From IMG/VR virus record IMGVR_UViG_3300025598_001701: 64,000 bases of DNA; one strand, written 5' to 3'. Positions 3,677-58,938 of the stretch are shown in pieces; within the stretch, counting starts at the first letter, position 1; every line of letters starts with the position of its first letter. A program made the translations under genes and the position numbers. Below the pieces are notes generated by a model. The model had not been told where the DNA came from, did not search any database, and saw only the letters and a program-made list of their open reading frames with translations. This stretch comes from an uncultured virus (IMG/VR IMGVR_UViG_3300025598_001701). Lineage: Duplodnaviria; Heunggongvirae; Uroviricota; Caudoviricetes.

Positions 3677-4401
3677 TTTTTATTTTCCTTTTTAACATGT
3701 TTATAAATCTTGTGGATGCCATTCTGGAACATCATATACATCAGCGGAATATTATCACTGCTTTTACAAAATACACGAACTGCACCATAATAATAACCAT
3801 ATGTATCTTTACCAGTAACGGCACGTTTGCACCAACGTGCAAGTGCAGGAGATATGCTCAAGTCGTCACTATTACTGTCAACAAAATTATACAGTGCAAC
3901 CAACTTATCACGCTGTGTTTGTTTAGTAGAAGTAAGATCAGCTTGCCAACCCCAATAGGTATTAAAATCAACCTGATATTGGATTTCTGGATCATACTTT
4001 TTTTCACTGATAAGTTTTACATCGACAGCAATATTATCAAGATTATTCAACTCGTCAATATACTGCGTGTTACTTGTGGTTAAACCATAAACATGAACAC
4101 GCAGTTCTGGATCATCAAGAAACGCATCAAGCACTGCTGTTTCATTGGTAAAAATACGCAGATAACCTTCTTGACGCATACGTGCAGTTGGGTCAATATC
4201 CAAAACTTTGCTTTTAATAGAATGTGAATAAGTCCACATCCAACGACGAACTTCTTCCCAATTACCATTACAGCCCACTTCCAAACGGAATCTATACTTT
4301 TGCTTATACCAAGTTTTAGCCTCAGTACTTACACGCCAAGCTGGAATTATGCTTTTGAACTTGTCCTGATATTCAATCAGCGTTTGTTCTGTTACTGTCA
4401 T
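3673..4401 (-). CDS. Hypothetical protein
   Basis: 242-aa ORF overlapping both neighbours. Confidence 0.65.
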   Translation of the reverse strand: MTVTEQTLIEYQDKFKSIIPAWRVSTEAKTWYKQKYRFRLEVGCNGNWEEVRRWMWTYSHSIKSKVLDIDPTARMRQEGYLRIFTNETAVLDAFLDDPELRVHVYGLTTSNTQYIDELNNLDNIAVDVKLISEKKYDPEIQYQVDFNTYWGWQADLTSTKQTQRDKLVALYNFVDSNSDDLSISPALARWCKRAVTGKDTYGYYYGAVRVFCKSSDNIPLMYMMFQNGIHKIYKHVKKENKK

Positions 4402-6604
4402 TTTCTGCCACCAATTCTAACTTGTCACCAAGCAAGTCTACTTTAATAATAACACCGTTTTGTGATTTGTCAAACAGTATTTTCTTTGCAAGCGGAGTCT
4501 TAATATGTTCATGAATTGTGCGGCTCATTGGTCTTGCACCAAGAAGTGGACTATAACCCTTCTTGACAAGCCAATCATAAGCAGCGTCAGTAACATCAAG
4601 CGTGATGTTTTTACCTGACATTTGTGCTTGTAGTTCAGCAATGAACTTTTCAGCAATCTTACGGATAGTTTTGCTATCCAGTTTGTTGAATGTAACAATC
4701 GCATCTACACGATTGCGGAACTCTGGACGGAAATGCTCTTTAACAGCAGCATCAACCGCATCACTACGATCTTGATTACCAAAACCAATAACAAGACGTT
4801 CACTGTCAGCGGCACCAAGATTACTGGTCATAATCAGTAGTGATTGGCGACAGTCAGCACGTTTACCATTGGTGCCAGTGATGAAACCTTCATCCATAAC
4901 TTGCAACAACACTTGTGCAACATCTGGATGTGCTTTTTCAATCTCGTCAAACAGAATGATACAATGTGGGTTTTTAGCAACTTCACTAATAAGCAATCCG
5001 CCAGCAAGGTTAGCATCTTCATATCCAACATAGCCAGGAGGCGCACCAATCAATCGTGAAATACTATGCCGTTCTTGATATTCACTCATATCAAAGCGCA
5101 ACAACTTCATACTAAGTTTTTCACTTAATTGCTTTGCAAGTTCTGTTTTACCTGTGCCAGTTGGACCAAGAAATAGGAATGAACCAACAGGCTTGTTATC
5201 AGCCTTTAAGCCAGCTTGACTTACCCATACACGGTCAAGAACAGCATCAACAGCCGCATCTTGATTATAAACTTTAGCCTTGATATCTTTGTCAAGATTA
5301 GGCATAAGTTTTTGTGTATTCTCTGCACCAAGTTGCGACTCTGGAATACCAGTAATGCGGCTTAATTCACGGCGGATTTGATTTACGTCAATAGTGCGTG
5401 AACCACGTGATTGTGTGCGGCGAAGTGCAGCAGCACTGTCAATTAGATCAATTGCTTTATCTGGCAGCTTCTTATCTGCTTGATAACGATGACTCAACAT
5501 AACTGCTTCAATAACAGCAGCATCTGTAATTTTAACATTATGAAATGCTTCATAATTTGTTTTGATACCAAGCATAATTGTTTTACAATCTTCAATACTT
5601 GGTTCGCCAACATTTACTTTGTTAAAGCGGCGCATAAGCGCACGGTCTTTTTCAAAATGCTTGGTGTACTCTTCCCACGTAGTAGAAGCAATAACTTTAA
5701 AATCGCCACGTGCCAATGCTGGTTTAATCATGTTGCCAAAATCAACATTGCTTTGGCTACCAGCGCCAGCACCATTCATTTGATGTGCTTCGTCAATGAA
5801 CAAGATAACATTGCCACGTTCTACTGCAGCATTCATAATTTCTTGTAATCGTTCTTCAAAATCACCACGATATTTGGTGCCAGCTAACAGCGAACCAATG
5901 TTTAGGCTATAAACATCATGCCCACGCAAGAACTTTGGAACTTCATTATGGACAATTTTATATGCAAGACCTTCGGCAATTGCAGTTTTACCTACGCCAG
6001 GATCACCAACAAGAATAACATTGCATTTATTCTTACGAGCAAGAATTTGTGTCATGTCCGCAATTTCACTTACACGACCAATGACAGGATCAATCTTGCC
6101 ATCAACAACTAATTCATTAAGGTTGGTACAATATTCATCAAGCGCACTGCTACTGTTAAATCCGCTTTGCTTTTTGCGCTCGTTAGCAAAAACTTCCATA
6201 ACCTTTTCAGGTTCAACACCATATTTTTTTAAGTAGTAAGCAGCATGGCTTTGAGTTTCTTTACTGATACTAAGATAAAGATCAGTAATGTTAATAGTTT
6301 GGCGACCTAACAATATAACTTGTGTAAAAGCACGGTTAAAGACACGTTCAAGTGTTTGTGTCTTTTTAGGTTCAACTGAATCTTTGCCTTGTGGAATATT
6401 ATCAAAGATATAATTTTCCAAATCTTGCACTAGGCTTTCAACATCAATGCCTATTTGTGTAAGAATACGACTAAATCCACGTTCATGGAGCATACTAACA
6501 AGTAGATGTTCCACTGTATAATATTGGTGATTGTTATCAATAGCAAACTGTTTTGCTATCTTAACTACTTTTTCAAGGTCGCCGTTGCTGTTAAAATTTG
6601 TCAT
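4373..6604 (-). CDS. clpA: ClpA-like AAA+ unfoldase
   Basis: Clp N-domain, Walker A GDPGVGKT and GPTGTGKT, FIDE/FDE Walker B, DMSEY..H, GAPPGYVG; no ClpB middle coiled coil. Confidence 0.9.
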   Translation of the reverse strand: MTNFNSNGDLEKVVKIAKQFAIDNNHQYYTVEHLLVSMLHERGFSRILTQIGIDVESLVQDLENYIFDNIPQGKDSVEPKKTQTLERVFNRAFTQVILLGRQTINITDLYLSISKETQSHAAYYLKKYGVEPEKVMEVFANERKKQSGFNSSSALDEYCTNLNELVVDGKIDPVIGRVSEIADMTQILARKNKCNVILVGDPGVGKTAIAEGLAYKIVHNEVPKFLRGHDVYSLNIGSLLAGTKYRGDFEERLQEIMNAAVERGNVILFIDEAHQMNGAGAGSQSNVDFGNMIKPALARGDFKVIASTTWEEYTKHFEKDRALMRRFNKVNVGEPSIEDCKTIMLGIKTNYEAFHNVKITDAAVIEAVMLSHRYQADKKLPDKAIDLIDSAAALRRTQSRGSRTIDVNQIRRELSRITGIPESQLGAENTQKLMPNLDKDIKAKVYNQDAAVDAVLDRVWVSQAGLKADNKPVGSFLFLGPTGTGKTELAKQLSEKLSMKLLRFDMSEYQERHSISRLIGAPPGYVGYEDANLAGGLLISEVAKNPHCIILFDEIEKAHPDVAQVLLQVMDEGFITGTNGKRADCRQSLLIMTSNLGAADSERLVIGFGNQDRSDAVDAAVKEHFRPEFRNRVDAIVTFNKLDSKTIRKIAEKFIAELQAQMSGKNITLDVTDAAYDWLVKKGYSPLLGARPMSRTIHEHIKTPLAKKILFDKSQNGVIIKVDLLGDKLELVAENDSNRTNAD

Positions 6605-6610
6605 AATACT

Positions 6611-6638
6611 AATATAACACAGTTTTCAGACTTGTCAA
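6611..6638 (-). promoter_or_regulatory. Sigma70-type early promoter TTGACA-N16-TATATT
   Basis: Same spacing repeated at 31445-31472, 41279-41306, 61490-61517 and 63676-63703. Confidence 0.65.
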
Positions 6639-7507
6639 GTATTTATTGGTCGTAATTCTTGTATTTTTCTTACTAAATTTAGCTGTTCTGCTGTTAATAT
6701 TGATGGAATTTTAACATTTATTCTTGCAATATACTTTCCACGAGTGCCATTTTGCCTTGGAAATCCTTCATCCGTAATACCAAATTGACTCTGGTGCTGT
6801 GTTCCTGCTGGTATGTTTATTTCAATGGTTTTACCACTGGGCAAATTTACAGGAATTTTACATCCTGTCATCGCTTGAAAAGCATCAATTGTAATATCTT
6901 CCATAATATTTTCATTATTTCTTACAAAACGTTCATGACGATGAACACGAATTTGAACATCTAAATTACCACGAGGAATTCCAGGATTTGCATCATCACC
7001 ACGTCCTACAACTTGAAAAACAAAACCATCTTCTACGCCAGCGGGAATTTCTAAATTTAACCGTTCGGTATTGTTTGTGGTTTTAAATTCTATAACTTTA
7101 TTTTGTGGATTTAATGTTTCTAAAAATGGAATATCTATTTGGATACGCAAGTTGCGGTTCCGTGGTTGTTGCCTTGTTTGAAAACCAAATTGGCTAAAAA
7201 ATTGGTCATGAAAAGCAGACATTGGGTCTGGTCCACCACCAAAGTTAAAATGAAATTCAAATGGGCTTGGACCACGTTGGGTATAAGGATTATGTTGAAA
7301 TTGTGGTTGCGGATTACGCAAAGTATGGTCGTAATGTGCACGACTATTTGGATCGCTTAGTGTATTATATGCTTCATTAATAGCTTGAAATTTAGCCACA
7401 TCACCACCTACATCGGGATGATGCTGTTTAGCTAATTTTCTAAAAGCCGATTTAAGTTCTTCTGGGGTAGCTGTTTGTGATACCCCAAGAGTTTCATAAT
7501 GATTCAT
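6635..7507 (-). CDS. DnaJ/CbpA-like co-chaperone without zinc finger
   Basis: J-domain with HPD, G/F-rich linker, DnaJ C-terminal IPAG repeats. Confidence 0.9.
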   Translation of the reverse strand: MNHYETLGVSQTATPEELKSAFRKLAKQHHPDVGGDVAKFQAINEAYNTLSDPNSRAHYDHTLRNPQPQFQHNPYTQRGPSPFEFHFNFGGGPDPMSAFHDQFFSQFGFQTRQQPRNRNLRIQIDIPFLETLNPQNKVIEFKTTNNTERLNLEIPAGVEDGFVFQVVGRGDDANPGIPRGNLDVQIRVHRHERFVRNNENIMEDITIDAFQAMTGCKIPVNLPSGKTIEINIPAGTQHQSQFGITDEGFPRQNGTRGKYIARINVKIPSILTAEQLNLVRKIQELRPINT

Positions 7508-22255: not shown

Positions 22256-22471
22256 TTATTTAAACCTATAAACTATTCTGCCACGGGTTAAATCATACGG
22301 ACTTAGTTCAACGCTTACACGATCATCTTGAATAATTTTAATTTTATTTTTACGAATATTACCACTTGTGTATGCAAGCACAATATGCTCGTTAATTTCT
22401 ACCCTGAATACACCATTTGGTAAAACTTCCATTACTTTACCTTCAAATGTAATAAGTTCTTCTTTTGCCAT
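22256..22471 (-). CDS. infA: Translation initiation factor IF-1
   Basis: [22 protein letters not shown]. Confidence 0.92.
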
Positions 22472-30032: not shown

Positions 30033-31217
30033 TTACTCGCCCACCGCACCGTTATAATCCCAACGATGTGAACCCCACAGTGAACGGGCTTCATCAACTT
30101 TGGTCTGGCTACCAAGATGCTTGCGGATCAAGTCCAACACCATCTTTCGAGTATCACGACCATCAAACTTACCAAACACAATGTTAGGTGCGAATTGGTC
30201 TTGTGACTTGATAGTAGGCATCCACTCTAACGCATAACGCTTACGGTCAAGACCATGAGCCGTAACCATGTCAAAATATTTGTCATATGACTTCACTGCT
30301 TGGTTTACACCAATCCAAAAGTCAGTTTCAAATTCTTCAACACGCTTGCGGTCATCATCCAACATAAACGCTTTTGCGTCATCCATCTTTTCTTCAACAA
30401 GAAGTTCAATAATGTTCTTCTCGTGAAGCAGATTGTCTTTGGTCTTGTGAATACGCAGATACCATTCGCCCTTTACCTTGACCATATGACCGTTGTTAAA
30501 GCGAACGATATAACCCTCAATGCCTTCGGCATCGCGAGTTTCATCCATAATATGCTGCATAGAAACTGCTGAACCTTGATAAGTCTTTACAACTTCTATT
30601 TCAAACATAGCACCGTATTCTTGCAACCATTGCAGGCTTGCATATTTGCCGCTTTCTTTATCACGAGCAGCAATTAGTACAAGACGATCTACAGGATAGT
30701 CCACAACAATACGTTGCTTACGAGAACACCATTCAAAGATAGGAGTATAACCTGTCTTGTCTTTACACCAACGAGCAAATTGCTCATACTGTGGATGACG
30801 AGCAACAAACTCTTCTGCTTGCATAGAAACTTCGGTTATGCCCATCTTGGTTCCCCAACGGATGCTACCATCAGGCATGAAGATAGGCGTAATCATAGAG
30901 CCGTCTAACTTCTCCAAGATAACATGCGGCAGTGAAAAGTTGATTGCAGCGAACTGCGTTTCTTCACGCTCGCCAATGTTGAAGAACTTATGCAGACGGC
31001 GTGACATAATAGTGCCGTCCTTGTGAAACAGCATACCACGACATTCACGGCGTATCGCATCTAACTCTGACTCAACAGGCGGAAAGGTATCTGACATCGA
31101 CACCATGTAGTTGACTACATAGCCCCAATCACGCTCTGCAATGATAAATTCATCACGACCTTCAATAGCAGGACGAACCTGATCAAGGTGAGTGATACGG
31201 GGAAATTCGTAGAACAT
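30033..31217 (-). CDS. RNA ligase 1 (T4 RnlA-like)
   Basis: ECRG, KFFN..E, EKLDGS, FE, EGYIV, KVKGEWY...H. Confidence 0.9.
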   Translation of the reverse strand: MFYEFPRITHLDQVRPAIEGRDEFIIAERDWGYVVNYMVSMSDTFPPVESELDAIRRECRGMLFHKDGTIMSRRLHKFFNIGEREETQFAAINFSLPHVILEKLDGSMITPIFMPDGSIRWGTKMGITEVSMQAEEFVARHPQYEQFARWCKDKTGYTPIFEWCSRKQRIVVDYPVDRLVLIAARDKESGKYASLQWLQEYGAMFEIEVVKTYQGSAVSMQHIMDETRDAEGIEGYIVRFNNGHMVKVKGEWYLRIHKTKDNLLHEKNIIELLVEEKMDDAKAFMLDDDRKRVEEFETDFWIGVNQAVKSYDKYFDMVTAHGLDRKRYALEWMPTIKSQDQFAPNIVFGKFDGRDTRKMVLDLIRKHLGSQTKVDEARSLWGSHRWDYNGAVGE

Positions 31218-32448: not shown

Positions 32449-32540
32449 TGGCGGTGAGACAGGGATTCGAACCCTGGGTAGGGGATAAACCCTACAACAC
32501 ATTAGCAGTGTGCCGCTTTCGACCACTCAGCCACCTCACC
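32449..32540 (-). tRNA. tRNA-Ser(GCT)
   Basis: GCACA-CTGCTAA-TGTGT, long variable arm, G73, CCA. Confidence 0.93.
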
Positions 32541-32961
32541 ATATAATTGACTCATCTAATAATTCACTATACAACGGTGCTCTAGATTTGTCAACATTTA
32601 TTGTATTCTTGCCTACTTCTTTTCTTATTCTAAAAGTTTTTACATTTCTAATTTGTTCTTTGTTAAAATAACAAATTGAATCTACATCTGGTATATAAAC
32701 AGCCCACCCATCAACCGCAGATAAATCAATTGGAATTTTCTTACCGTTGACAACGGTACTGAATGGTATTTCAACAGAATTTATTCTACTATCAACTTGT
32801 CTATATTTAACCTGCAATTTTTTAACGTTATGATTTTTATCCATAACAATCAAATCAACTGCACTATAATCATGTATTGGGGTAAAACATTCATAACCTT
32901 TTTTAGTTAAATCTCGTATGACTTCTATTAACCCAATACAACCTTTTTCATTTACGTTCAT
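32536..32961 (-). CDS. PD-(D/E)XK endonuclease, homing-endonuclease-like
   Basis: KG..G......L...GY....P....S.VDLIV.....KLQVK; start at MNVNEK after GGAG. Confidence 0.75.
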   Translation of the reverse strand: MNVNEKGCIGLIEVIRDLTKKGYECFTPIHDYSAVDLIVMDKNHNVKKLQVKYRQVDSRINSVEIPFSTVVNGKKIPIDLSAVDGWAVYIPDVDSICYFNKEQIRNVKTFRIRKEVGKNTINVDKSRAPLYSELLDESIIW

Positions 32962-33013
32962 TATACTCTCCTGCATTATTTATATTTATGCAGAAGTTGA
33001 CTCAACTTGTAGA

Positions 33014-35496: not shown

Positions 35497-35744
35497 ACTG
35501 GAAAGTGTGGTAATCCCCAATCATAATCTTTCCAACGTAGTCCAAATAGCACAGCATCTTCGCTGCGTTTGAATGACCATTGACTAGTCCAACCATCTTT
35601 TGTATCATTAGCATACGGCCATAGATCAATAGCATACTCAATACTATTTTGCAAACACCAGATAACCATCTGATCAATCCACCACTCTTTTCCATAGAAA
35701 TGAGCAGCGGGTATTGTAATATCTATATCAAATTTTTCGGTCAC
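35493..35744 (-). CDS. Hypothetical protein
   Basis: F...EDA..F.LRW motif. Confidence 0.6.
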   Translation of the reverse strand: MTEKFDIDITIPAAHFYGKEWWIDQMVIWCLQNSIEYAIDLWPYANDTKDGWTSQWSFKRSEDAVLFGLRWKDYDWGLPHFPV

Positions 35745-36190
35745 TTTTTTCCACGCTTGAATCTAAAAGTTTCTGTTTGTGAATGGCAGTTTGGACAAAG
35801 TAATCGCAAATTAGATAATTGATGATTATTTGAATTGCCATCTATATGATCTAACTCTAACGATATTGGTTTATTATTGTATTCACTTATTCCACAAGAA
35901 ACGCATTTATAATCTATAACATTTTCTTTTAGAAGTCTATTTTTTAATTTATAAGATTGGTATTGCGGATGTTTTCCAGCAAGTATTTCTTGTAAATGTA
36001 ATTTTCCTTTACCTTCTTCTTTTGGTTTGTTATAACCTTTTAATCCAGGATTTGGTTCATATAACCCAAACTTTTTTGCATTTCTTTTGAAAGTAGAAAA
36101 ATGTAGATTTAACTTTGCTGCAGCCTGTGCCATAGATTGACTTTCCTCTATAGCGTTTTGAAAGTCTTGTTTTGTGTAAGTGATAGACAT
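35741..36190 (-). CDS. HNH endonuclease with N-terminal HTH
   Basis: CVSC, LELDHIDG...N....NLRLLCPNCH. Confidence 0.88.
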   Translation of the reverse strand: MSITYTKQDFQNAIEESQSMAQAAAKLNLHFSTFKRNAKKFGLYEPNPGLKGYNKPKEEGKGKLHLQEILAGKHPQYQSYKLKNRLLKENVIDYKCVSCGISEYNNKPISLELDHIDGNSNNHQLSNLRLLCPNCHSQTETFRFKRGKK

Positions 36191-36226
36191 ATCGGTTTCC
36201 TATTCCTATATGTCTATTTATGTTTT

Positions 36227-36359
36227 TGGTGCGCTCTACCAGAATCGAACTGGTACGCCGAAGCGAGAGATTTTACGGCGGAGATTCTGGACTTGAACCA
36301 TAGTGGGCGTTTACCCTTTCTCCGAAGTCTCTTGTGTCTACCTATTCCACCAAGAGCGC
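36227..36359 (-). tRNA. tRNA-Leu(TAA) interrupted by a 50-nt anticodon-loop insert
   Basis: GCGCTCT/AGAGCGC acceptor, Leu-type D arm, AGAGA/TCTCT stem, variable hairpin, ACCAG-TTCGATT-CTGGT, ACCA; removing 50 nt restores CTTAAAA. Confidence 0.85.
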
Positions 36360-36366
36360 ATTATCT

Positions 36367-36654
36367 TTACTTTACACTAATACTATGTATGCTGTCAAGT
36401 CTAAAAGAACGCCATTCACCGATATCAGTTACAAAAACCGCAAGTGATTTGTCACTCGTTTTGCGTTCACGTTTTTCTTCACCTTCTGCTACAACTTGGG
36501 GTGGCAACAGTTCAGGTTTAAGGGTGCAAGGCATCGTGCGTAAATCGCCATTGACTTTAGTAAAAGTTACTTCACATACATTTCCATGCAACATATCACG
36601 CAACATATCAATGCTTGGTTGAACTTCGTTGTTAAACTCAATATATGCTGTCAT
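36367..36654 (-). CDS. WYL-like/SH3-fold protein
   Basis: VTFTK.NG..R.M..TL, WRSFR. Confidence 0.7.
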   Translation of the reverse strand: MTAYIEFNNEVQPSIDMLRDMLHGNVCEVTFTKVNGDLRTMPCTLKPELLPPQVVAEGEEKRERKTSDKSLAVFVTDIGEWRSFRLDSIHSISVK

Positions 36655-40159: not shown

Positions 40160-40621
40160 TTATACCAGTATAATTTCGTCCCAACCTTCCTTTAAATCGG
40201 GGACTTCCAAATTGCTAATCATGCTTGACATAACATCCTTTGGGATGCTTTTGCCTACACGACTATCAAGACGGCGTTGCAATTCGTCAGGTTCAGGTGT
40301 AGCAAAAAAGACACAAATCTTGCGCCAATCGCTAGGAATACGACCTAACTTGACCTTACGACCCTTTGCAGTCGTATTGGTTTGATCCCAAATAAGAGTT
40401 TTGTCGAGATTAATTGCAGTTTGCACTTGTGCATCACAAAACTTCTGTGCATAACCAATAGCACGGCTAAAGATTTCGTTATAAGTTTTGCCAGACTTTT
40501 GTGCAACAGTGTCAATGTAATCATCGCTTGACGCAATAATTACATCTTCAAACTTTTGGTTCTTAATCCAAGTTGACTTTCCCGAACCAGGAACACCAAC
40601 TAACATATAAAGAGTAGCCAT
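40160..40621 (-). CDS. P-loop kinase (polynucleotide-kinase-like)
   Basis: G.PGSGKST, SSD, DQTN, R...R. Confidence 0.8.
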   Translation of the reverse strand: MATLYMLVGVPGSGKSTWIKNQKFEDVIIASSDDYIDTVAQKSGKTYNEIFSRAIGYAQKFCDAQVQTAINLDKTLIWDQTNTTAKGRKVKLGRIPSDWRKICVFFATPEPDELQRRLDSRVGKSIPKDVMSSMISNLEVPDLKEGWDEIILV

Positions 40622-40622
40622 A

Positions 40623-40790
40623 TTATCCTACATTATCCCAACGATTAGCAACTGTAAGCACAAATTGCACCATAAAATAAATCGCAGTTGTCAATATTAG
40701 TACAAAGAACATTTCACCTTGACTAAACTTCATTGCACTCATTACTACATCTGCAATAAAAACTGCTAGCATACTTGTCCAAAAGTTCAT
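40623..40790 (-). CDS. Small membrane protein (55 aa)
   Basis: Hand-read MNFWTSMLAVF...; TAATG-coupled to upstream gene. Confidence 0.5.
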   Translation of the reverse strand: MNFWTSMLAVFIADVVMSAMKFSQGEMFFVLILTTAIYFMVQFVLTVANRWDNVG

Positions 40791-41257
40791 TAGAAATTTC
40801 CTTCTGCTACTTGTAAAACACGCACACCTTGCGCACGGATTGCATCTACTACTTGCTGACGGTCATCAAACCACAGATAAGGCTCGCCCCAATCCTTGCG
40901 GATTTGGTCAAGTAATTCTACCTTGACGATGCTATCCTTGCGATAGTCGCCCTCGCTTCGCATATACAATTGCTCATATGTAAAGCCATTATCGTTCAAC
41001 CAACGACGAGTAACTTCACGAGTTTCCTCGCCACGACCACTGCACAAAATGATAGCAATTTCATCTTCGTGATCAGGATGGTTTACATTAGCAAACCTGA
41101 ACATATCCATAATGAACTTGATATCTTCATGAACCGTATCGTTAGCCATGCCTGCGTTCCAAGCCGCCCAGTTCTTTGGCTTGCTTGAAACCCAATGCTC
41201 ACGATGTTCAGTGTTGGCAATCGTGCCATCAATGTCAAAAACGATAACTTTGTTCAT
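40790..41257 (-). CDS. HAD phosphatase (Pnkp 3'-phosphatase-like)
   Basis: DIDGT, SGR, MR...D.R.D..VK, FDDR. Confidence 0.85.
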   Translation of the reverse strand: MNKVIVFDIDGTIANTEHREHWVSSKPKNWAAWNAGMANDTVHEDIKFIMDMFRFANVNHPDHEDEIAIILCSGRGEETREVTRRWLNDNGFTYEQLYMRSEGDYRKDSIVKVELLDQIRKDWGEPYLWFDDRQQVVDAIRAQGVRVLQVAEGNF

Positions 41258-41312
41258 AATTGCCTCCATCTACAACCAAATATAGCATAGGATTTGGGGT
41301 TGTCAAGCAGTT

Positions 41313-48181: not shown

Positions 48182-50227
48182 TTACTTTGTGTTGGTGCGA
48201 TACACGGTATCCCAACCTTCGCCAGGTGGATTAGCAGCCATCTCGCTGCAGCGTTCAATCCACATATCATAATATCCATCCATTTGACCATCAAATGAAC
48301 CTATAAGTGCTTTACACGCAGCAGCAGCAGTCTTGAACTTTTGTGAACGATAATCATCCATCATGTTAAGATGACGAATTTTATCAGCGGCATATTGATA
48401 AGCGTTGCTACGTATTTCTAATACTGTATGAATATTAACACCTTCTTTTTTACCTTTGACTGCAATACAATCTAGTGGTAATGTAAAATATTCATTTTTT
48501 ACGTATTCATTAGTCTTATCGCCAATTACCATGGCAACATGATATGGCTTACTTTGACCTTCTAGACGTGATGCCAAATTAACGCCGTCGCCAAGACAAG
48601 TGTAATCAAACCGCTGACTACTGCCCATGTTGCCAACCACCACAGTAGCAGTGTTAATACCAAGTCCCATACCGAAAGGTGGAACACCCTCGGTAGCAAC
48701 TTCTCTATTAAATGCATCTAAACTTCCTAACATTTCTAGTGCTGTTTTTACAGCGTTCTTGGCATGGTCAGCGTCATCAAGTGGTGCATTCCAAAAAGCC
48801 ATTTGTGCATCACCAATATATTTGTCAAGAGTTCCGCCATTTTCTAATATCTTTGCTGTCATCGCTGTCATATAGCGATTCATGATTTTGGTAAGCCCTT
48901 GAACATCAGCACCATAATGCTCACTAATACTAGTGAATCCACGAACGTCAGTAAAGATAATTGAAAGTTCACGACTTTCTCCTCCAAGTTGTAATAATTC
49001 TGGATTTTTTTGTAGCTTCTCAACCATTGCTGGCGATAGATAAGTTCCAAATTGTTTCTTAATTTGTTGCTTTTGTAAAAACTCACTAACAAACTTTACG
49101 CCGTAGGCATGCAGAGCGACCAGAACCAATCCCCCCACAATTGCGGTTGCGTCCCATAACTGTAAAGCGTTATTAAACATATAGAAACTGCCAGCAACAC
49201 TGCCGCCAACCAATACAATAACCGACCCAAGTCCAACATATACCCACCTTGTTAAGAACAATAGCAGCAATCCACCAAGCACAAGTGCTAGTAATTCTGC
49301 ACCTTCTGCATAATCTGGTCTAGAAATATTAACTTTATTTGCAAGCGTTGCAATAATCTTTGCTTGAATATCTTGTGGATACACGGCACCAATAGCAGTA
49401 GGCACAGGGTTAGCAATACCAGCAGCCGATGTGCCAACAATAACTACTGCACCATCAAAGTTTTTAGGCATATCCATTAAACTTACACGATGATGTTGTT
49501 GACTTAAATCAATCCATACACGACCAAGCTGATCTGTTGTGAATATAGATTTACCCATACCCATTTTGTCAATGCCAATTTCACTTAACTTAACCTTGAA
49601 ATTTTTTTCTTGCATCAAAACACGCAGTGTTTCAATACCAATAGTAGGATAAAGTTTGTTACCACTACCAACCAATAGCGGAATACGACGATTCACACCA
49701 TCTATTTCAGGAAATACATTAGTAGTTCCTACACCAACAGCGGTGTTTTCTAGTTCTGGAATATTAGCAATAATACCAGGATAGTTATAGATTCTGTCAA
49801 TGAAATTACTATTGACAATAGCAGCACCATTTGCACGTGGTGTATTTTTATTCACGCTGCTTGGAATGTTGGAAAGTATGGTAGGATATTGTTTTAATGT
49901 ATCTGCCAACACAGCATCGCCTCCTTGACGATCTGCTTCTGGCATCAACACAGTCCATACGACAAGACTTGCGCCACGATTATAAATGTCTTTAATTATA
50001 TCCGCATATATTGTTCTATTAAACGGCCACTGACCATATTTGTCAAGTGCTGCTTCATCAATATTAACTGTATAAATTGGATTTTCTGTTGGTGTTTTAT
50101 TTGTGATAAGTGTATCAAAATATCTTAACTTAATACTTTCAACAAAAGTAGGATTATAAAACTTTACAGCAGCAACAATTACTAATGTGATGAGTGCGGT
50201 CCATGGTGATAATAGAATTTTTTTCAT
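48182..50227 (-). CDS. CHASE2-sensor class III adenylate cyclase
   Basis: IDE.AL.KYGQWP..R CHASE2, three TM helices, FTDVRGFT, DKYIGDA, GDGVNLASRLEG. Confidence 0.92.
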   Translation of the reverse strand: MKKILLSPWTALITLVIVAAVKFYNPTFVESIKLRYFDTLITNKTPTENPIYTVNIDEAALDKYGQWPFNRTIYADIIKDIYNRGASLVVWTVLMPEADRQGGDAVLADTLKQYPTILSNIPSSVNKNTPRANGAAIVNSNFIDRIYNYPGIIANIPELENTAVGVGTTNVFPEIDGVNRRIPLLVGSGNKLYPTIGIETLRVLMQEKNFKVKLSEIGIDKMGMGKSIFTTDQLGRVWIDLSQQHHRVSLMDMPKNFDGAVVIVGTSAAGIANPVPTAIGAVYPQDIQAKIIATLANKVNISRPDYAEGAELLALVLGGLLLLFLTRWVYVGLGSVIVLVGGSVAGSFYMFNNALQLWDATAIVGGLVLVALHAYGVKFVSEFLQKQQIKKQFGTYLSPAMVEKLQKNPELLQLGGESRELSIIFTDVRGFTSISEHYGADVQGLTKIMNRYMTAMTAKILENGGTLDKYIGDAQMAFWNAPLDDADHAKNAVKTALEMLGSLDAFNREVATEGVPPFGMGLGINTATVVVGNMGSSQRFDYTCLGDGVNLASRLEGQSKPYHVAMVIGDKTNEYVKNEYFTLPLDCIAVKGKKEGVNIHTVLEIRSNAYQYAADKIRHLNMMDDYRSQKFKTAAAACKALIGSFDGQMDGYYDMWIERCSEMAANPPGEGWDTVYRTNTK

Positions 50228-55351: not shown

Positions 55352-55882
55352 TTAATGTTTAGTATAAGAATAACCGCTACAATTGCCCGTATAACACTGT
55401 ATGCTCATGCTGCCACTATCTGGTGTTGTTGGGTTGTCTTGCACAACAGTTGCGCCTATATTGCTACCACTTAATTTAAGAATAAAAGATTTATCAGCAT
55501 CGCCGCTTTGGGTAATTGATGCAGTATTATTGCTGTTAGACGTAGTGGGGTCCAAATTAATGCTAGCTGTATGATTGCCACCGCCAGTTTGTAATATAGT
55601 AAAATTATTACTGCTGTTATTTTGTGAGTTACTATTAGTGATATAAGTCCCATCGCTGTTTTTTCCCACTGGTGGTGTGCCAATAAAAGCAGCATGGTCA
55701 CCGCTGCCATTTTGAACAACTGTTGTGGTATTGTTACTACCATTATTCAACAATATTGCTTCACTATTTCCACTGCTTGTTTGTTCAACAAATGTGTTGT
55801 TATTATCACCTACTTGGTCAATGTAAACACTGCCAGCATAACAAGGTGTAGAAAATAAGATTGCTAATAATAACTGCTTCAT
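55352..55882 (-). CDS. Curlin-like repeat protein (CsgB-like)
   Basis: Signal peptide; repeated I.Q.G..N units; C-terminal Cys pair. Confidence 0.65.
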   Translation of the reverse strand: MKQLLLAILFSTPCYAGSVYIDQVGDNNNTFVEQTSSGNSEAILLNNGSNNTTTVVQNGSGDHAAFIGTPPVGKNSDGTYITNSNSQNNSSNNFTILQTGGGNHTASINLDPTTSNSNNTASITQSGDADKSFILKLSGSNIGATVVQDNPTTPDSGSMSIQCYTGNCSGYSYTKH

Positions 55883-57009
55883 TGTGTCTGCACTATTTTT
55901 ATGGTTGAGCCACCTTGATGTTGCACATCCTGTTGTAGACTTGTACCTTCTTGTGTAAGAATCAAACTAGTTGGTTGATCTTTATCTACTGTAACTTGCA
56001 TATAACTGTTGGTGCCGTATCTATAAAGAGTTAATTGGTTATCAATTAAGTAATAATATAAACCTGCTTGCTTATTTTTATCATAATTTGGCAGCATTTG
56101 GTTTTGTCCACCTAACATACTTTGTAGCAGTGCTGCATTTGCAAGGTCCAACATATTAGCCAAAAATTGTGCATCAAGTGCATTACGATCTAATTTGTTG
56201 AACACAGTCAAGTAATTCATATTCAACTCGTCAAAAGCTAAAAAGTCTTTATCTAAAAAGTTGATATCAAGTGCGGTGCGAACAACTGTTTGTTCTTCTT
56301 TATCTTCTTTTGGTTTTACCAAAATCAACATATTATTAATTTGTGCTTCAGTAAGTGCCAATATAACAGGTTTCATAGGATTTTGTTCTTTAGCAGAAGT
56401 AATTGTGCTTTGAAACGGTTTATCTAAATGCACAGTTCCCATATCTGTGGTAACATCAATTTTTCCAGTTACACAATCTTTTTCAATATTTTTATATCCT
56501 ACAGGACAGCTTGGTAACAAAATAACTAAACTACGACCAATTTCATCAACGGTCATACTAAAATCTGTTCCACGCACACCAATAGTTGCAGTTGGTGTTT
56601 CAATTTTAACACTTTGTGGATTTTCTTTTGCTATTTGACCACTTGCATATCGTGCTGTTCCAATAGCAACCTTTAACCCAAGTTTACTAGCATCTGCATT
56701 TTTTGGATCATACACAAAGTCATCAATTACGAGTTTACTTTGTTCAGTAATTTCAACTTTTGTTGAATCTTCAAACGTAATACCAACACGTGCTTTAGCT
56801 GTTACAACGGCATCGTTTTGTTCAACGCCAGTGTTTACAGCACTAGGTATGCTTTCTTTATCACGCTGTATTTCAGTTGGACCAGTTTGTTCTGTAACTG
56901 TGCCAATAGCTGCTTTAGTTTCCGCTGGTAACGCTAATGTTATTATTAGAACCAGTGCTGTGGACACTAACGTTGCTATCGATTGTACCAGTTTGTGTGA
57001 CTGCGACAT
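55879..57009 (-). CDS. FecR-domain exported protein
   Basis: F.D.T......S.L.ID, ETPTATIGVRGTDF; start at ATG 57009 or GTG 56967. Confidence 0.85.
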   Translation of the reverse strand: MSQSHKLVQSIATLVSTALVLIITLALPAETKAAIGTVTEQTGPTEIQRDKESIPSAVNTGVEQNDAVVTAKARVGITFEDSTKVEITEQSKLVIDDFVYDPKNADASKLGLKVAIGTARYASGQIAKENPQSVKIETPTATIGVRGTDFSMTVDEIGRSLVILLPSCPVGYKNIEKDCVTGKIDVTTDMGTVHLDKPFQSTITSAKEQNPMKPVILALTEAQINNMLILVKPKEDKEEQTVVRTALDINFLDKDFLAFDELNMNYLTVFNKLDRNALDAQFLANMLDLANAALLQSMLGGQNQMLPNYDKNKQAGLYYYLIDNQLTLYRYGTNSYMQVTVDKDQPTSLILTQEGTSLQQDVQHQGGSTIKIVQTQ

Positions 57010-57598
57010 TATTTGAGGCTCCTGTTACTTGAACATCTGAAGTAAATCCATTTGCACCTGCTGGTCCATTTTGTGTAACAGAAACAGTATTGCTGTCACC
57101 TGTTGTGTGGATAGTTGCTTGTGCGCCTAGCATATTTGTAGTTGAACTGTTTAGAGTTGTATTGTTATTACTGCCATCAACTGTTACACTAAGTGTGCTT
57201 TTATTACCACCAGTAACAGCAGTAGTATTAGCACTGCCGTTAACATTTGCAGTAATATTTGTATCATTACAACTTGATGTAGGTTGTGTTCCGCAACCAA
57301 TTGTTGTATTGTTATTGTCACCATTTACGTTACTTGTTACTGTAGAATTGCCGCCTTGAACATTTACATTATGAGTATTGTTACTACCAACTTGTGTGAT
57401 AGCAATTGTTTGGTTATTACCGTTTAAAATTGTGTGAGTGCCGTCATCGCCAATAGTGTTTCCACTACCAGTTTGAGTCATTGTGATTGTGCTGCCACTG
57501 CCAATTTGATCAATGTATACGTTGTTGATCGTTCCAGCCAAGCTATGTGACGCAAATAGCACTGCTGCAACAAATGTTGCTATCTTTAATGACTTCAT
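56915..57598 (-). CDS. Curlin-like repeat protein (CsgA-like)
   Basis: Signal peptide; many Q/V.G..N repeats, N/T/G/S-rich. Confidence 0.7.
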   Translation of the reverse strand: MKSLKIATFVAAVLFASHSLAGTINNVYIDQIGSGSTITMTQTGSGNTIGDDGTHTILNGNNQTIAITQVGSNNTHNVNVQGGNSTVTSNVNGDNNNTTIGCGTQPTSSCNDTNITANVNGSANTTAVTGGNKSTLSVTVDGSNNNTTLNSSTTNMLGAQATIHTTGDSNTVSVTQNGPAGANGFTSDVQVTGASNNVAVTQTGTIDSNVSVHSTGSNNNISVTSGN

Positions 57599-57618
57599 AT
57601 CAACTCCTTTGAGGAGTT

Positions 57619-58437
57619 TCACTTCTTCTTGGTAGGATCAGCGAAATTCCACAAACCTTTTTCTTTACCCTGTTTAATCATGTCTACAACTGCTGCCTCT
57701 GTTGCAAGACGCACAGCATATGTGGTAGGTTCGTTGATATTTGCACCTGTTTCTACTTGAACACTCATAGTGCCTTGGTCTAAGAACGTTAGCAACGTTC
57801 CGCTATTGGCTACACTAAGAATAGTTTTAGTTGCGCCAGCACTTACTAGAACTTCACCAGTATGAACACTGATTAGACGAAGAACTACTGTTACTACATC
57901 TGTTCTGTATTGTTGATTTACTCCAATTCCTAACATAGCAGCACCATTGCCGCCGCTTTGTAGGTTAGTATCGTATCCTACAATTCCGCCTTCAACCATC
58001 ACACCAGCAATTAACATTGGTGCAAGTTGTTTAGCATCCTTGCCTTCATATGTTTCACGTTGATTGCGAATAAGTTGACGTTCTTTAATTAAATCATCAA
58101 GACCAACTCGTTCTACAACCTGAAACCATTTGCCATGACCAGCATCTTGTAATGCTTTAATTAAAAAGACTTCACCGCCTTGTGTTACTGCACTGCTTAG
58201 CACACTAAACTTGTCATTTTCTTTACGCTGACCAGTTTTATCCTGAAACCCATACATAGCGATAGTTACTGGTGGTCCATCAGGTGGTGGCAAGTTTGCA
58301 AGCTCACTATAATATGATTTTGTAATTCTACTAGGCATCAATGTAGCTGCCTCTGGAATTTTTCCTTCATATGGTGGTGTGCTTTGGCAAGCTGCCAGTG
58401 CTAAAACTATAGTTGATAAAAGTAACTTCTTGAACAT
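57619..58437 (-). CDS. csgG: CsgG curli secretion channel lipoprotein
   Basis: Lipobox LAAC; F.D.TGQ.K, S.AVTQG, WF.VVER.GL..L..ER..IR. Confidence 0.9.
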   Translation of the reverse strand: MFKKLLLSTIVLALAACQSTPPYEGKIPEAATLMPSRITKSYYSELANLPPPDGPPVTIAMYGFQDKTGQRKENDKFSVLSSAVTQGGEVFLIKALQDAGHGKWFQVVERVGLDDLIKERQLIRNQRETYEGKDAKQLAPMLIAGVMVEGGIVGYDTNLQSGGNGAAMLGIGVNQQYRTDVVTVVLRLISVHTGEVLVSAGATKTILSVANSGTLLTFLDQGTMSVQVETGANINEPTTYAVRLATEAAVVDMIKQGKEKGLWNFADPTKKK

Positions 58438-58886
58438 TAAAACTTGAAACTCCCTATTGGAACCGTAATGTCAGTACGATTACCAGTAGGGTCAATTACA
58501 GTCAAGTTAATTGTTTGTGCAGTTGTATCTTTAATCCAACTGATTGTACTTCCTTGAAAGTCCATTGATCCACTTGTAGAACCATCACTGAACATAGCGT
58601 TACTTAATTGAAGGCTGAGTTGTGCATAAATGCGTGACTCAAGGTTATTCATAAACTTTGATAAATTTGTATTTTGTGCAGCAGCAGCCGCAGCATCGGC
58701 ATCAGCCTTTTGCTGTGCAATTCGTGCTTGTTTACGAGTATATTCTTCGTTTTCGATGGTCAATGCATGACTACTATAACCATCGCCACTGAACTCAGGA
58801 TTCTTAAACCCAAAGGTCATTTCACTAGCGCCTGCACTAGTGGCGATTGTCACGAAAAATACAAAAATTGATACAAATTTCTTCAT
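58437..58886 (-). CDS. csgF: CsgF-like curli assembly protein
   Basis: Signal peptide, F.F.NP.F.G, F...LESRI...LS, T.ITVP. Confidence 0.8.
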   Translation of the reverse strand: MKKFVSIFVFFVTIATSAGASEMTFGFKNPEFSGDGYSSHALTIENEEYTRKQARIAQQKADADAAAAAAQNTNLSKFMNNLESRIYAQLSLQLSNAMFSDGSTSGSMDFQGSTISWIKDTTAQTINLTVIDPTGNRTDITVPIGSFKF

Positions 58887-58938
58887 AGAAATCCCCAAAC
58901 TATTTAGTTTATGGGAATTTTATAATATATTAGTATAT

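Follow-up and report, generated by a model that had tools for sequence, protein, structure and literature searches.

How does a phage live with a tRNA gene whose anticodon loop is broken open by 50 additional nucleotides, and are these nucleotides removed from the RNA? The question is raised by a tRNA-Leu(UAA) gene of an uncultured virus of the Caudoviricetes (IMG/VR record IMGVR_UViG_3300025598_001701), of which a stretch of 64,000 nt, referred to throughout as the window, was analysed. The habitat of the phage is freshwater, its GC content is 37%, and its contigs are those of jumbo phages. A reading made earlier from the letters alone (hereafter the original prediction) had described a miniature tRNA-like element in the loop and proposed a new type of tRNA intron. 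The interpretation that we favour, with confidence that is evenly divided, is that the insert is a mobile, tRNA-shaped mini-intron of phage tRNA-Leu(UAA) genes, kept in place by collaborative homing.

An interrupted tRNA-Leu(UAA) gene and its insert-less alleles

The gene, its parts and the nearest promoter-like sequence are arranged as follows.

36227..36359, minus strand: interrupted tRNA-Leu(UAA) gene, 133 nt, CCA encoded (RF00005 match, ARAGORN intron search and minimum free energy (MFE) fold)
36325..36359, minus strand: exon 1, tRNA positions 1-34, 3' end CUU (same as in the insert-less allele L019)
36275..36324, minus strand: 50-nt tRNA-shaped insert, type 1 (MFE fold and comparison)
36227..36274, minus strand: exon 2, tRNA positions 35-76, 5' end AAAA (same as in the insert-less allele)
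36369..36398, minus strand: sigma-70-like promoter match TTGACA-18-TAAAGT just upstream of the tRNA (10/12 matches)

The promoter match is a positional hint only, the region overall not being enriched in sigma-70-like sites (4 found vs 4.6 expected). With the insert removed, the host gene is a class II tRNA-Leu with anticodon UAA: its acceptor stem reads GCGCUCU/AGAGCGC, followed by A73 and an encoded CCA, and it has a 3-bp D stem, an anticodon stem AGAGA/UCUCU, a variable arm of 11 nt and a T arm ACCAG-UUCGAUU-CUGGU. Even with the insert in place the gene scores 40.9 bits against RF00005 in Infernal (gathering score 29; model positions 1-71), the insert being treated as an anticodon-loop insertion; this match appears when only 400 bases are searched, as the speed filters lose the gene in whole-window scans. 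Default ARAGORN run on the window misses the interrupted tRNA-Leu, and ARAGORN with intron search finds every type-1 copy, labelled tRNA-Arg(tcg) i(39,50). The insert is present in a single copy in the window. Deleting either 36275-36324 or 36276-36325 yields the anticodon loop CUUAAAA, as the junction is ambiguous by one T; the insertion point of type 1 therefore lies between U34 and A35 or between U33 and U34. Both the RF00005 score and an insert-less allele with the loop CUUAAAA, which ARAGORN calls tRNA-Leu(taa) at L019, bear out the original prediction of a tRNA-Leu(UAA) with CCA and a 50-nt insert in its anticodon loop.

Alleles with and without the insert were recovered in several ways. 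Scanning IMG/VR with the 3' half of the tRNA gave eight loci, six with the insert and two without; at one of these two, L002, as at the insert-less locus L019, the exons are identical to those of the window and the anticodon loop is CUUAAAA. Close relatives were also collected through the upstream gene, a conserved gene for a 95-aa WYL_2 protein, an anchor that introduces no bias by tRNA sequence; twelve of them have a tRNA(UAA) at the locus, interrupted in six and intact in six. An exon-anchored scan of metagenomes, in which any insert of 35-65 nt was allowed, returned eight loci, and every insert in them was 50 nt long. The type-1 insert family comprises five distinct insert sequences and at least eight distinct locus contexts.

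The window version is present whole in DNA runs X1 and X3, which may be its source, while X2 holds both an insert-bearing contig and the insert-less junction, and X8 holds the insert-less junction only (depth 29.9), together with a joint that skips the neighbouring HNH gene described below (depth 31.4). X1, X2, X3 and X8 are all DNA runs, so that what appears in them as the short form must be an allele; it cannot be spliced RNA. Support from reads had been named in advance as a point on which the insert might fail, and public DNA contigs from X1, X2 and X3 do carry the insert-bearing form. The insert is thus confirmed to be real, and its presence or absence is precise, hence intron-like.

Fold, covariation and boundaries of the insert

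Folded alone, the insert has an MFE of -13.3 kcal/mol and consists of three helices and a tail. P1, of 6 bp (CGGAGA/UCUCCG, insert positions 1-6/41-46), is followed by the junction AA; P2, of 4 bp (positions 9-12/17-20), has the loop AAAC and is followed by a 4-nt linker; P3, of 3 bp (positions 25-27/35-37), closes a T-loop-like 7-nt loop, UUCAAGU, and is followed by the junction GAA; and the 3' tail is CCGU (positions 47-50). The 6-bp closing stem, small hairpin and UUCAAGU hairpin of the original prediction are exactly this MFE structure, and in the MFE fold of the precursor the tRNA cloverleaf is kept, with P1 stacked under the anticodon stem. Folding energies are ordinary compared with those of shuffled sequences (z -1.76 for the insert alone, with 10/200 shuffles as good; z -1.1 for the full precursor), so thermodynamics alone proves nothing, and support beyond chance for the structure comes, in our reading, from comparison.

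That comparison is with a second form of the insert. Type 2 is a 62-nt insert in another tRNA-Leu(UAA), found at loci L091, L092, L094 and L143 of a different phage, whose record G005 (85 kb, GC 40%, 37 tRNAs; CheckV completeness 24%) shares only the HNH and WYL_2 proteins with the window. It reads CGAGGA-AA-GCGU(GAAA)ACGU-AGAA-CAG(GAAGA)CUG-A-CGG(UGCGAAU)CCG-GAA-UCCUCG-CCUA. When a covariance model is trained on no more than the five type-1 sequences, it matches type 2 from one end to the other (model positions 1-50; 26.4 bits, E 1.4e-4), and the type-2 matches are the only ones that the model makes in 386,886 bases of tRNA-rich loci. Standard pairs fill 78/78 pair cells of the joint alignment of both types, with four compensatory pairs between type 1 and type 2 (two in P1, one in P2 and one in P3) and two more compatible changes; in slid controls, where the partners were moved by 1-3 columns, compensatory pairs number 0 each and pairing falls to 28-55%. 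The original prediction had named the lack of any covarying homologue as grounds for refuting it; type 2, noticed among the relatives of the HNH gene described below, is such a homologue, and it is on this comparison, as we see it, that the idea of a mini-tRNA now rests. The extra 12 nt of type 2 form a fourth hairpin and give a four-arm mini-cloverleaf (-16.1 kcal/mol); the MFE structure of type 2 (-16.8 kcal/mol) has a different internal fold from this cloverleaf.

Both types follow one boundary rule: the unit runs from the first base of P1 to 4 nt beyond P1, with tails CCGU and CCUA, and the junctions AA and GAA are the same in each. The insertion sites differ, as that of type 2 is, without ambiguity, C32/U33 (GAGAC closes exon 1, and exon 2 begins UUAAAAUC). 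Because the two types differ in site and share their ends, the ends of the unit are set by its own structure and not by position in the tRNA.

Read in tRNA terms, the unit extends from +1 to the place of A76, with a 7-layer acceptor (6 pairs plus A·A), then 2 nt, a 4-bp D-like stem and, at the 3' end, a 'discriminator' C and three more bases; the T-like arm directly adjoins the 3' strand of the acceptor if two non-canonical layers are included. In the P3 loop of both types, U, C, A and U at positions 1, 3, 5 and 7 are invariant and position 4 is always a purine, a pattern that we take to be that of T-loop positions 54, 56, 57, 58 and 60, and sub-matches of the insert model (positions 25-37 and 22-37) land on the T-arms of the window's tRNA-Gln and tRNA-Ser. 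The insert is tRNA-shaped, and it is not a tRNA. A weak 'mitochondrial tRNA' register, T-arm-less and with discriminator U50, which ARAGORN reports at a lowered threshold, was rejected (-7.9 vs -13.3 kcal/mol; pair probability 0.02 vs 0.8), as was an origin of the insert from the phage's own tRNAs or from exon 2, for which alignment scores lie inside the shuffled range. Nor does the insert match, at E up to 10, any Rfam family of self-cleaving ribozymes (hammerhead, twister, pistol, hatchet, HDV and others). The original prediction had seen no bulge-helix-bulge (BHB), and with the usual geometry (two 3-nt bulges holding the splice sites, with a 4-bp helix between them) none is found over 17 offsets for each insert type, at most 3/4 central pairs forming and the flanking helices never.

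Separately, the closing stem resembles the host anticodon stem, GGAGA/UCUCC compared with AGAGA/UCUCU in type 1 (36319-36324 / 36279-36284) and CGAGGA compared with CGAGA in type 2 (L091 1688-1693). The AAA preceding the stem is likewise echoed by the junction GAA. Such likeness could be chance in purine-rich stems, the trace of a duplication, or functional mimicry.

Variation within type 1 is unevenly distributed. Over the eight loci (five distinct sequences), variable sites amount to 2/83 in the exons, 0/26 at paired insert positions and 6/24 at unpaired ones (Fisher p = 0.0085 for paired vs unpaired insert sites, 0.0015 for exons vs unpaired insert sites). The exon variants are G13A in exon 1 of L041 and one T-loop position in exon 2 of L035, both at positions tolerated in working tRNAs. 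The same six haplotypes vary at 133 sites in the 337 columns upstream, vs 4/133 in the tRNA plus insert. On this comparative evidence we regard the insert as a structured RNA under selection.

Searches for the element elsewhere returned little. The locus has no BLAST match in 50,697 phage records and is absent from the nearest record, G001; the type-2 tRNA with its insert matches phage records by BLAST in tRNA exon pieces only. Scanning genome contigs with the insert core gave 0 matches, and anchoring the insert ends in any CUU/AAAA loop recovered the same tRNA alone. When the pattern was relaxed to two anchors, 37 viral loci and at least 120 matches in genomes came back. Of the genome loci, 80 were examined, and among the matches examined, those in tRNAs are just the 10 viral loci already known. 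The remaining matches were rejected as chance, their scores of 11-28 bits arising because the pattern itself supplies P1.

A homing endonuclease gene beside the insert

Directly downstream of the interrupted gene lie an inverted repeat and an endonuclease gene.

36183..36217, minus strand: inverted repeat, 10 bp (ATAGACATAT / ATATGTCTAT), with the HNH start codon (36190-36188) in its 3' arm; read from the sequence
35741..36190, minus strand: free-standing HNH homing endonuclease gene, 149 aa, 36 nt downstream of tRNA-Leu

The HNH gene named at this place in the original prediction is supported by PF01844 (26.7 bits, cut-off 21.4) and by phrog_10822 (E 9e-39), and in tblastn its product is 37% identical to T5 hegA/F-TflIV over 93% of its length. 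The inverted repeat, reported as a hairpin in a spurious Rfam match, probably holds down translation of the HNH gene.

Relatives of this HNH gene point to the tRNA beside it. More than 600 are found in IMG/VR, and positions were counted for the best 80: 79 of these lie amid tRNA genes, a tRNA-Leu(UAA) stands directly downstream in 14 (with an intron-bearing one in 5 more) and directly upstream in 14, and in 4 (L058, L065, L106 and L125) the HNH gene is inside a tRNA-Leu(UAA) intron of 695-776 nt. About 40 of the best 80 thus flank a tRNA-Leu(UAA) or lie inside its intron. L068 and L069 are further intron-internal cases, in which ARAGORN mis-calls the anticodon and the gene reads CUU/...G/AAAAUCC. 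Rfam group I introns were found in 4/12 loci scanned, namely L058, L060 and L072 (tRNA-Leu) and L075 (tRNA-Arg(CCG)), and by eye L065, L125, L068 and L069 have a common 3' intron sequence. The introns of these tRNA-Leu(UAA) genes fall at the following places.

L058 1897-2679; L065 1895-2679; L106; L125 501-1359; L068 1807-2591; L069 1923-2681: phage tRNA-Leu(UAA) introns at U34/A35, about 700 nt, with internal HNH gene
L060 2441-2728; L072 2446-2742: phage tRNA-Leu(UAA) group I introns at U34/A35, about 200 nt, with a free-standing HNH gene just upstream

HNH-carrying group I introns therefore exist in phage tRNA-Leu(UAA) genes; a 2014 review placed every phage intron known at that time in a protein-coding gene (PMC3984707).

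At the loci of the insert family, an HNH gene occurs in 4/8 distinct insert-bearing contexts vs 0/5 insert-less ones, in two versions that have a common catalytic part (51% identical), and an HNH gene also adjoins the type-2 insert gene, 7 nt upstream of it. In L035 the block of tRNA, insert and HNH gene stands behind an unrelated gene, homology to the window beginning 8 nt ahead of the tRNA. Most simply, enzymes of this HNH family would target tRNA-Leu(UAA) DNA around the anticodon loop. The arrangement of HNH gene and insert fits collaborative homing, in which a free-standing endonuclease gene adjoins a gene with an intron that lacks a homing endonuclease gene (HEG). The insert would interrupt the anticodon-loop sequence that the neighbouring HNH enzyme likely cuts in insert-less alleles, would thereby protect its own genome from that enzyme, and could be copied together with the HNH gene into other phages. 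Of the alternatives raised with the original prediction, the one strengthened most is that the insert is a remnant that blocks the HNH target; the tie of the HNH family to tRNA-Leu(UAA) and to group I introns at the same site speaks for it, but the insert is not recognisable as a group I remnant. Nuclease blocking and splicing are in any case complementary readings, not alternatives.

Several other features were observed in and around these tRNA clusters. A third kind of short insert at this loop, a 21-nt hairpin, occurs in tRNA-Leu genes directly after an HNH relative (L083 2431-2538; L088 2428-2535; L159, L164, L165); ARAGORN calls these SeC(tca) i21, and a 1-nt shift gives CUUAAAA. UAA-anticodon tRNAs of 77 nt that lack the long variable arm (class I body; L012 1130-1206; L013 2797-2873; L152 1634-1710; L153 1606-1682) occupy the locus of the window tRNA-Leu or adjoin the same HNH family. 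Other ARAGORN intron calls, of 35-143 nt, were made in HNH-bearing clusters (L125 362-490; L126 3167-3308 and 3394-3627; L122 1169-1342), and several of them have one common acceptor/T-arm sequence (AGTCAGG...CCTGACT). GOLLD RNA (238.9 and 205.7 bits) and a tmRNA gene stand beside HNH-bearing tRNA clusters (L058 3643-4069; L072 109-572; L060 4174-4435). Free-standing nuclease genes of other families are represented by a PD-(D/E)XK (PDDEXK_5) open reading frame (ORF) between tRNA-Ser and tRNA-Val in the window (32536-32976, minus strand) and by a GIY-YIG (SegE-like) ORF within the tRNA cluster of a relative (L004 521-1024). Elsewhere the window encodes curli-type proteins (CsgG, CsgF and curlin repeats; 55352-58898), a CHASE2 nucleotide cyclase (48182-50227), ClpB-like and DnaJ chaperones (4373-7507) and an IF-1 homologue (22256-22471).

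Possible removal of the insert, rival readings and known systems

A working tRNA-Leu(UAA) appears to matter to these phages. The interrupted gene is the only tRNA with a UAA anticodon in 130.7 kb of the relative G002, and likewise among the 37 tRNAs of G005; Leu is encoded most often by UUA (31% of its codons in the window, 29% in G002); and every insert-less relative has an intact tRNA(UAA) at the same locus. Enzymes able to repair RNA are encoded nearby.

30033..31217, minus strand: T4-type RNA ligase 1 (Rnl1), candidate exon sealer (PF09511 104.4 bits, PF20819 34.3 bits; phrog_562 E 1.7e-74)
40160..40621, minus strand: polynucleotide kinase-like ORF, kinase half of Pnkp (PF13671 57.8 bits; phrog_505, residues 1-139)
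40790..41269, minus strand: Pnkp phosphatase-domain ORF (PF25109 HAD_PNKP 98.2 bits; phrog_505 E 1.2e-34)

The Rnl1 ORF has a nucleotidyltransferase domain and the Rnl1-specific (tRNA-specific) C-terminal domain, and both it and the Pnkp phosphatase ORF are conserved in the type-1 relatives G002 and G004. The original prediction, which had invoked a phage Rnl1 and Pnkp, agrees with these assignments, as both Pnkp halves are encoded in the window. Pnkp is here split into two ORFs, one kinase-like and one a HAD phosphatase, 168 nt apart. Among the 92 window ORFs scanned, no match was found to EndA-like proteins, RtcB, RNase Z or known anticodon-nuclease families.

Splicing, and the enzymes that would perform it, we infer from these genes and from the shape of the unit. 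The insert is probably a new sort of removable tRNA intron, and that it is spliced out we consider fairly likely. In the mechanism that we propose, the precursor would retain the tRNA-Leu cloverleaf while the insert folds independently as a miniature tRNA, with its closing stem as the 'acceptor', one D-like and one T-loop hairpin, and 4 nt of 3' tail. Excision at the first P1 base and 4 nt past P1 would then restore CUUAAAA. The 5' cut would be made by host RNase P, which cuts 5' of the first acceptor base and so leaves a 3'-OH on exon 1; in type 1 the base before the cut is U, which we take to be the -1 base preferred by RNase P. The 3' cut would be made by some endonuclease, at a point 4 bases past the stem, where a CCA-bearing tRNA ends. 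Sealing of the anticodon loop would fall to phage Rnl1, after healing of the ends by Pnkp where required, and these enzymes could seal either kind of end. The ends of the unit fit tRNA end-processing better than the alternatives considered, of which three were set aside: RNase III as the excising enzyme, since the junctions are directly opposite in the fold, with no 2-nt stagger; RNase P for the 3' cut, since no acceptor-like helix begins at A35; and RNase E, whose RN/WUU preference is matched by the junctions at only 2/4 positions each. The route through RNase P, a 3' nuclease and Rnl1 is nonetheless offered as a tentative one. We are similarly cautious about the broader proposal of a new class of bacterial-virus tRNA intron, of which these inserts would be the smallest members, with splice sites set by tRNA shape, cuts made by host end-processing at the '+1' and '76' ends, sealing by a phage ligase, which would give Rnl1/Pnkp a part in splicing, and spread between unrelated phages through collaborative homing with an HNH enzyme that otherwise accompanies group I introns at this tRNA site; this proposal is possible but doubtful as a whole.

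Several observations weigh against the mini-intron interpretation. As a tRNA the unit is a poor one: Rfam finds 0 matches in the insert alone at E up to 10, RF00005 included, ARAGORN in mitochondrial mode at default settings finds none either, and no more than 3 T-stem pairs are firm, free variation being seen at position 23, the one that would lengthen the stem. All covariation rests on one divergent lineage (type 2, a single haplotype), 13/13 pairs being invariant within type 1. The low diversity of tRNA and insert could partly reflect recent homing spread and not purifying selection; recent gene conversion, for its part, might account for low diversity as a whole but not for the way in which the changes avoid stems and exons. 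The association of HNH gene and insert involves small numbers, with four insert-bearing contexts that have no HNH gene, and many HNH relatives stand beside an intact tRNA-Leu(UAA), for example in the cultured T4-like phages PEi20 of Edwardsiella and avDM4 of Aeromonas, so the insert is not required for self-protection. As to the enzymes, we know of no bacterial or phage pathway that removes such an insert and of no general endonuclease for such a 3' cut. A cut by RNase Z after the discriminator would leave CGU, three extra bases, in the loop, the Thermotoga enzyme being one that cuts after CCA instead; trimming of the 3' end by exonucleases would consume exon 2. In the type-2 phage neither Rnl1 nor Pnkp was found in the 85 kb available, a result that is uninformative at 24% completeness.

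Among rival readings, the strongest, to which we assign a minority but substantial share of belief, is that the insert is never removed, so that the gene yields a tRNA-shaped, non-decoding RNA, either a displayed module (a decoy or anti-defence element) or a scar tolerated against the HNH enzyme. No excision pathway is known. CUU and AAAA flank whatever enters an intact loop at this point, so that a 'restored loop' is not evidence of splicing, and the stems would be conserved also if a structured module were selected for a function of its own. Such a reading sits less well with the constraint on the exons, which vary at 2/83 sites, in positions commonly variable in working tRNAs, vs 6/24 unpaired insert sites. 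It must also accommodate the absence of another UAA-reading tRNA in the DNA searched of either phage lineage, the rank of UUA as the top Leu codon, and the retention of an intact tRNA(UAA) at the locus by all insert-less relatives. Finally, homologous units at different loop positions share their structural ends, which mere display leaves unexplained and which is expected if the unit is excised, because the ends would then matter.

A second rival accepts splicing and changes the enzyme. Here a dedicated endonuclease would leave a 2',3'-cyclic phosphate and a 5'-OH, Pnkp would heal and Rnl1 would seal in the manner of yeast Trl1, and the fold would be a protein recognition element and not an RNase P substrate. 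The window does encode Rnl1 and both Pnkp activities, Pnkp would be needless if both cuts gave 3'-OH and 5'-phosphate, many window ORFs have no assigned family, and the alternative-register junction U33/U34 is presumably the site at which T4 Rnl1/Pnkp repair PrrC-cut tRNA-Lys. Against this, 0/92 ORFs scanned match a tRNA-intron endonuclease, RtcB or a known anticodon nuclease, and there is no BHB; moreover, Rnl1 and Pnkp also occur in phages that have no tRNA introns, such as T4, so their presence proves nothing. We judge the dedicated enzyme unlikely.

Less probable still is that the insert is the degenerate remnant of a group I intron at U34/A35, with the ribozyme core deleted and splicing lost. 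The site of type 1 is that of the group I introns in L060, L072, L058 and others, those introns have the same HNH family within or next to them, and the first bases of the insert, (C)GGAGAAA, are faintly like the AGAGAAA with which the L060 intron opens. Shifted to the other 1-nt register, moreover, the insert follows U and ends in G (U33/U...G49/U), a pattern seen in that register only, type 2 being C32/C...A/U33. Alignment of both insert types with eight group I introns gave 16/16 local scores within the shuffled controls, there is no Rfam group I match, and the insert's own fold is kept by compensatory changes; type 2, at C32/U33, is not at the group I site, and stems without decay (0/26 sites vary) are not expected of a dead remnant. 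The statement in the original prediction that the insert is far too short for a group I ribozyme is sustained at 50 nt and with no RF00028 match.

The weakest rival places the intron at the canonical 37/38 position, so that a tRNA with a Leu body and anticodon UCG would read the Arg codon CGA. It agrees with the ARAGORN -i label Arg(tcg) i(39,50) of all type-1 copies and is excluded because the insert-less allele reads CUUAAAA, with further points against it in that ARAGORN itself reports UAA for type 2, the 37/38 offset has no BHB (1/4 central pairs) and CGA makes up only 7.6% of window Arg codons.

How does the mini-intron interpretation compare with systems already described? To our knowledge, tRNA introns of bacteria and their viruses are removed by self-splicing only, and group I introns at U34/A35 are familiar from the tRNA-Leu(UAA) genes of cyanobacteria and plastids. 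The type-1 insert has in common with tRNA-Leu(UAA) group I introns the gene, the U34/A35 point and the HNH family, but 50 nt cannot hold the catalytic core P3-P9, RF00028 is not matched, and the insert cannot self-splice in that way. Like the protein-spliced introns of archaea and eukaryotes, it is small, lies in the anticodon loop, has an excision that would be defined by structure and would need an endonuclease and a ligase; it differs from them in having no BHB and no EndA-like window ORF, and in its positions, 32/33 and 34/35 in place of 37/38. Yeast Trl1 is related to T4 Rnl1/Pnkp. If the new-class reading is true, the phage would have a counterpart of the eukaryotic endonuclease/Trl1 pathway. 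Signals for tRNA-like processing are known from the tRNA punctuation of mitochondrial transcripts and from the mascRNA of MALAT1, and as there, RNase P and a 3' endonuclease could be drawn to a tRNA-shaped fold that is part of a longer RNA and cut at both its ends; the flanks stay unjoined in those systems, whereas here ligation would be needed for a working tRNA.

For the genetic arrangement the closest parallel is cyanophage S-PM2, where the free-standing F-CphI beside an intron-bearing psbA gene is described as collaborative homing (PMC6083498, citing Zeng, Bonocora and Shub 2009). As in that account, the endonuclease gene here adjoins a gene with a HEG-less intron at the intron site of related endonucleases, and the two tend to co-occur. 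The S-PM2 intron, as presented there, is a self-splicing group I intron and the cleavage specificity of its endonuclease has been measured, whereas the present insert is no ribozyme. T5 F-TflIV (hegA) and T4 SegB are homing endonucleases of phage tRNA gene clusters (PMC2330249), and the window HNH gene likewise resides in such a cluster; those enzymes are not known to be paired with an insert in a neighbouring tRNA.

The nearest precedent for the insert itself is found in the Lak megaphages, for which Devoto et al. 2019 (PMC6784885) report 'enigmatic' short conserved introns, at least one possibly encoding a tRNA, and leave them unexplained. Those introns, as described there, resemble the present insert in being short, non-group-I, optional and near-invariant and in lying in the anticodon loop of a phage tRNA. 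Compared by eye only, the Lak introns are 79-141 nt long and consist of a small hairpin, an AT-rich linker and a nested mini-tRNA; in the Tyr, Phe, Thr and Gly introns of their Table S6, an acceptor-like stem and a T-arm of the GGTTCGAwTCC type abut exon 2; of the two intron ends, it is the 3' one alone that matches the mini-tRNA, some 0-2 nt beyond the discriminator. In our case the whole insert is the mini-tRNA and sets both ends, the 3' end lying 4 nt past the stem; a hairpin and linker on the 5' side are lacking. Lineage and habitat of the phage differ too (freshwater, GC 37%), and there is a clear homing-endonuclease partner. In the literature searched, PMC7162821 included, no explanation of phage tRNA mini-introns after 2019 was found. 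Of the claim that this is a new type of tRNA intron, what stands is an insert that is conserved, structured, tRNA-shaped and precisely present or absent; priority for short phage tRNA introns belongs to Lak (PMC6784885).

What is new compared with Lak is the whole-insert mini-tRNA, the two-ended boundary rule, the freshwater jumbo-phage setting and a homing-endonuclease partner common to group I introns. Splicing of the insert would mean that a protein-dependent route of tRNA splicing exists among bacteria and their viruses and that the biological work of Rnl1 extends beyond repair. Should the insert stay in the RNA, homing endonucleases would be able to drive working tRNA genes into conserved non-decoding forms. 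Either way the locus makes the Lak-type puzzle testable, with a minimal element of 50 nt, a covarying second member, a boundary rule and natural insert-less alleles to serve as controls. Encoded close by are also a partner endonuclease, with relatives that reside in group I introns of this tRNA site, and a T4-type ligase plus a kinase-phosphatase.

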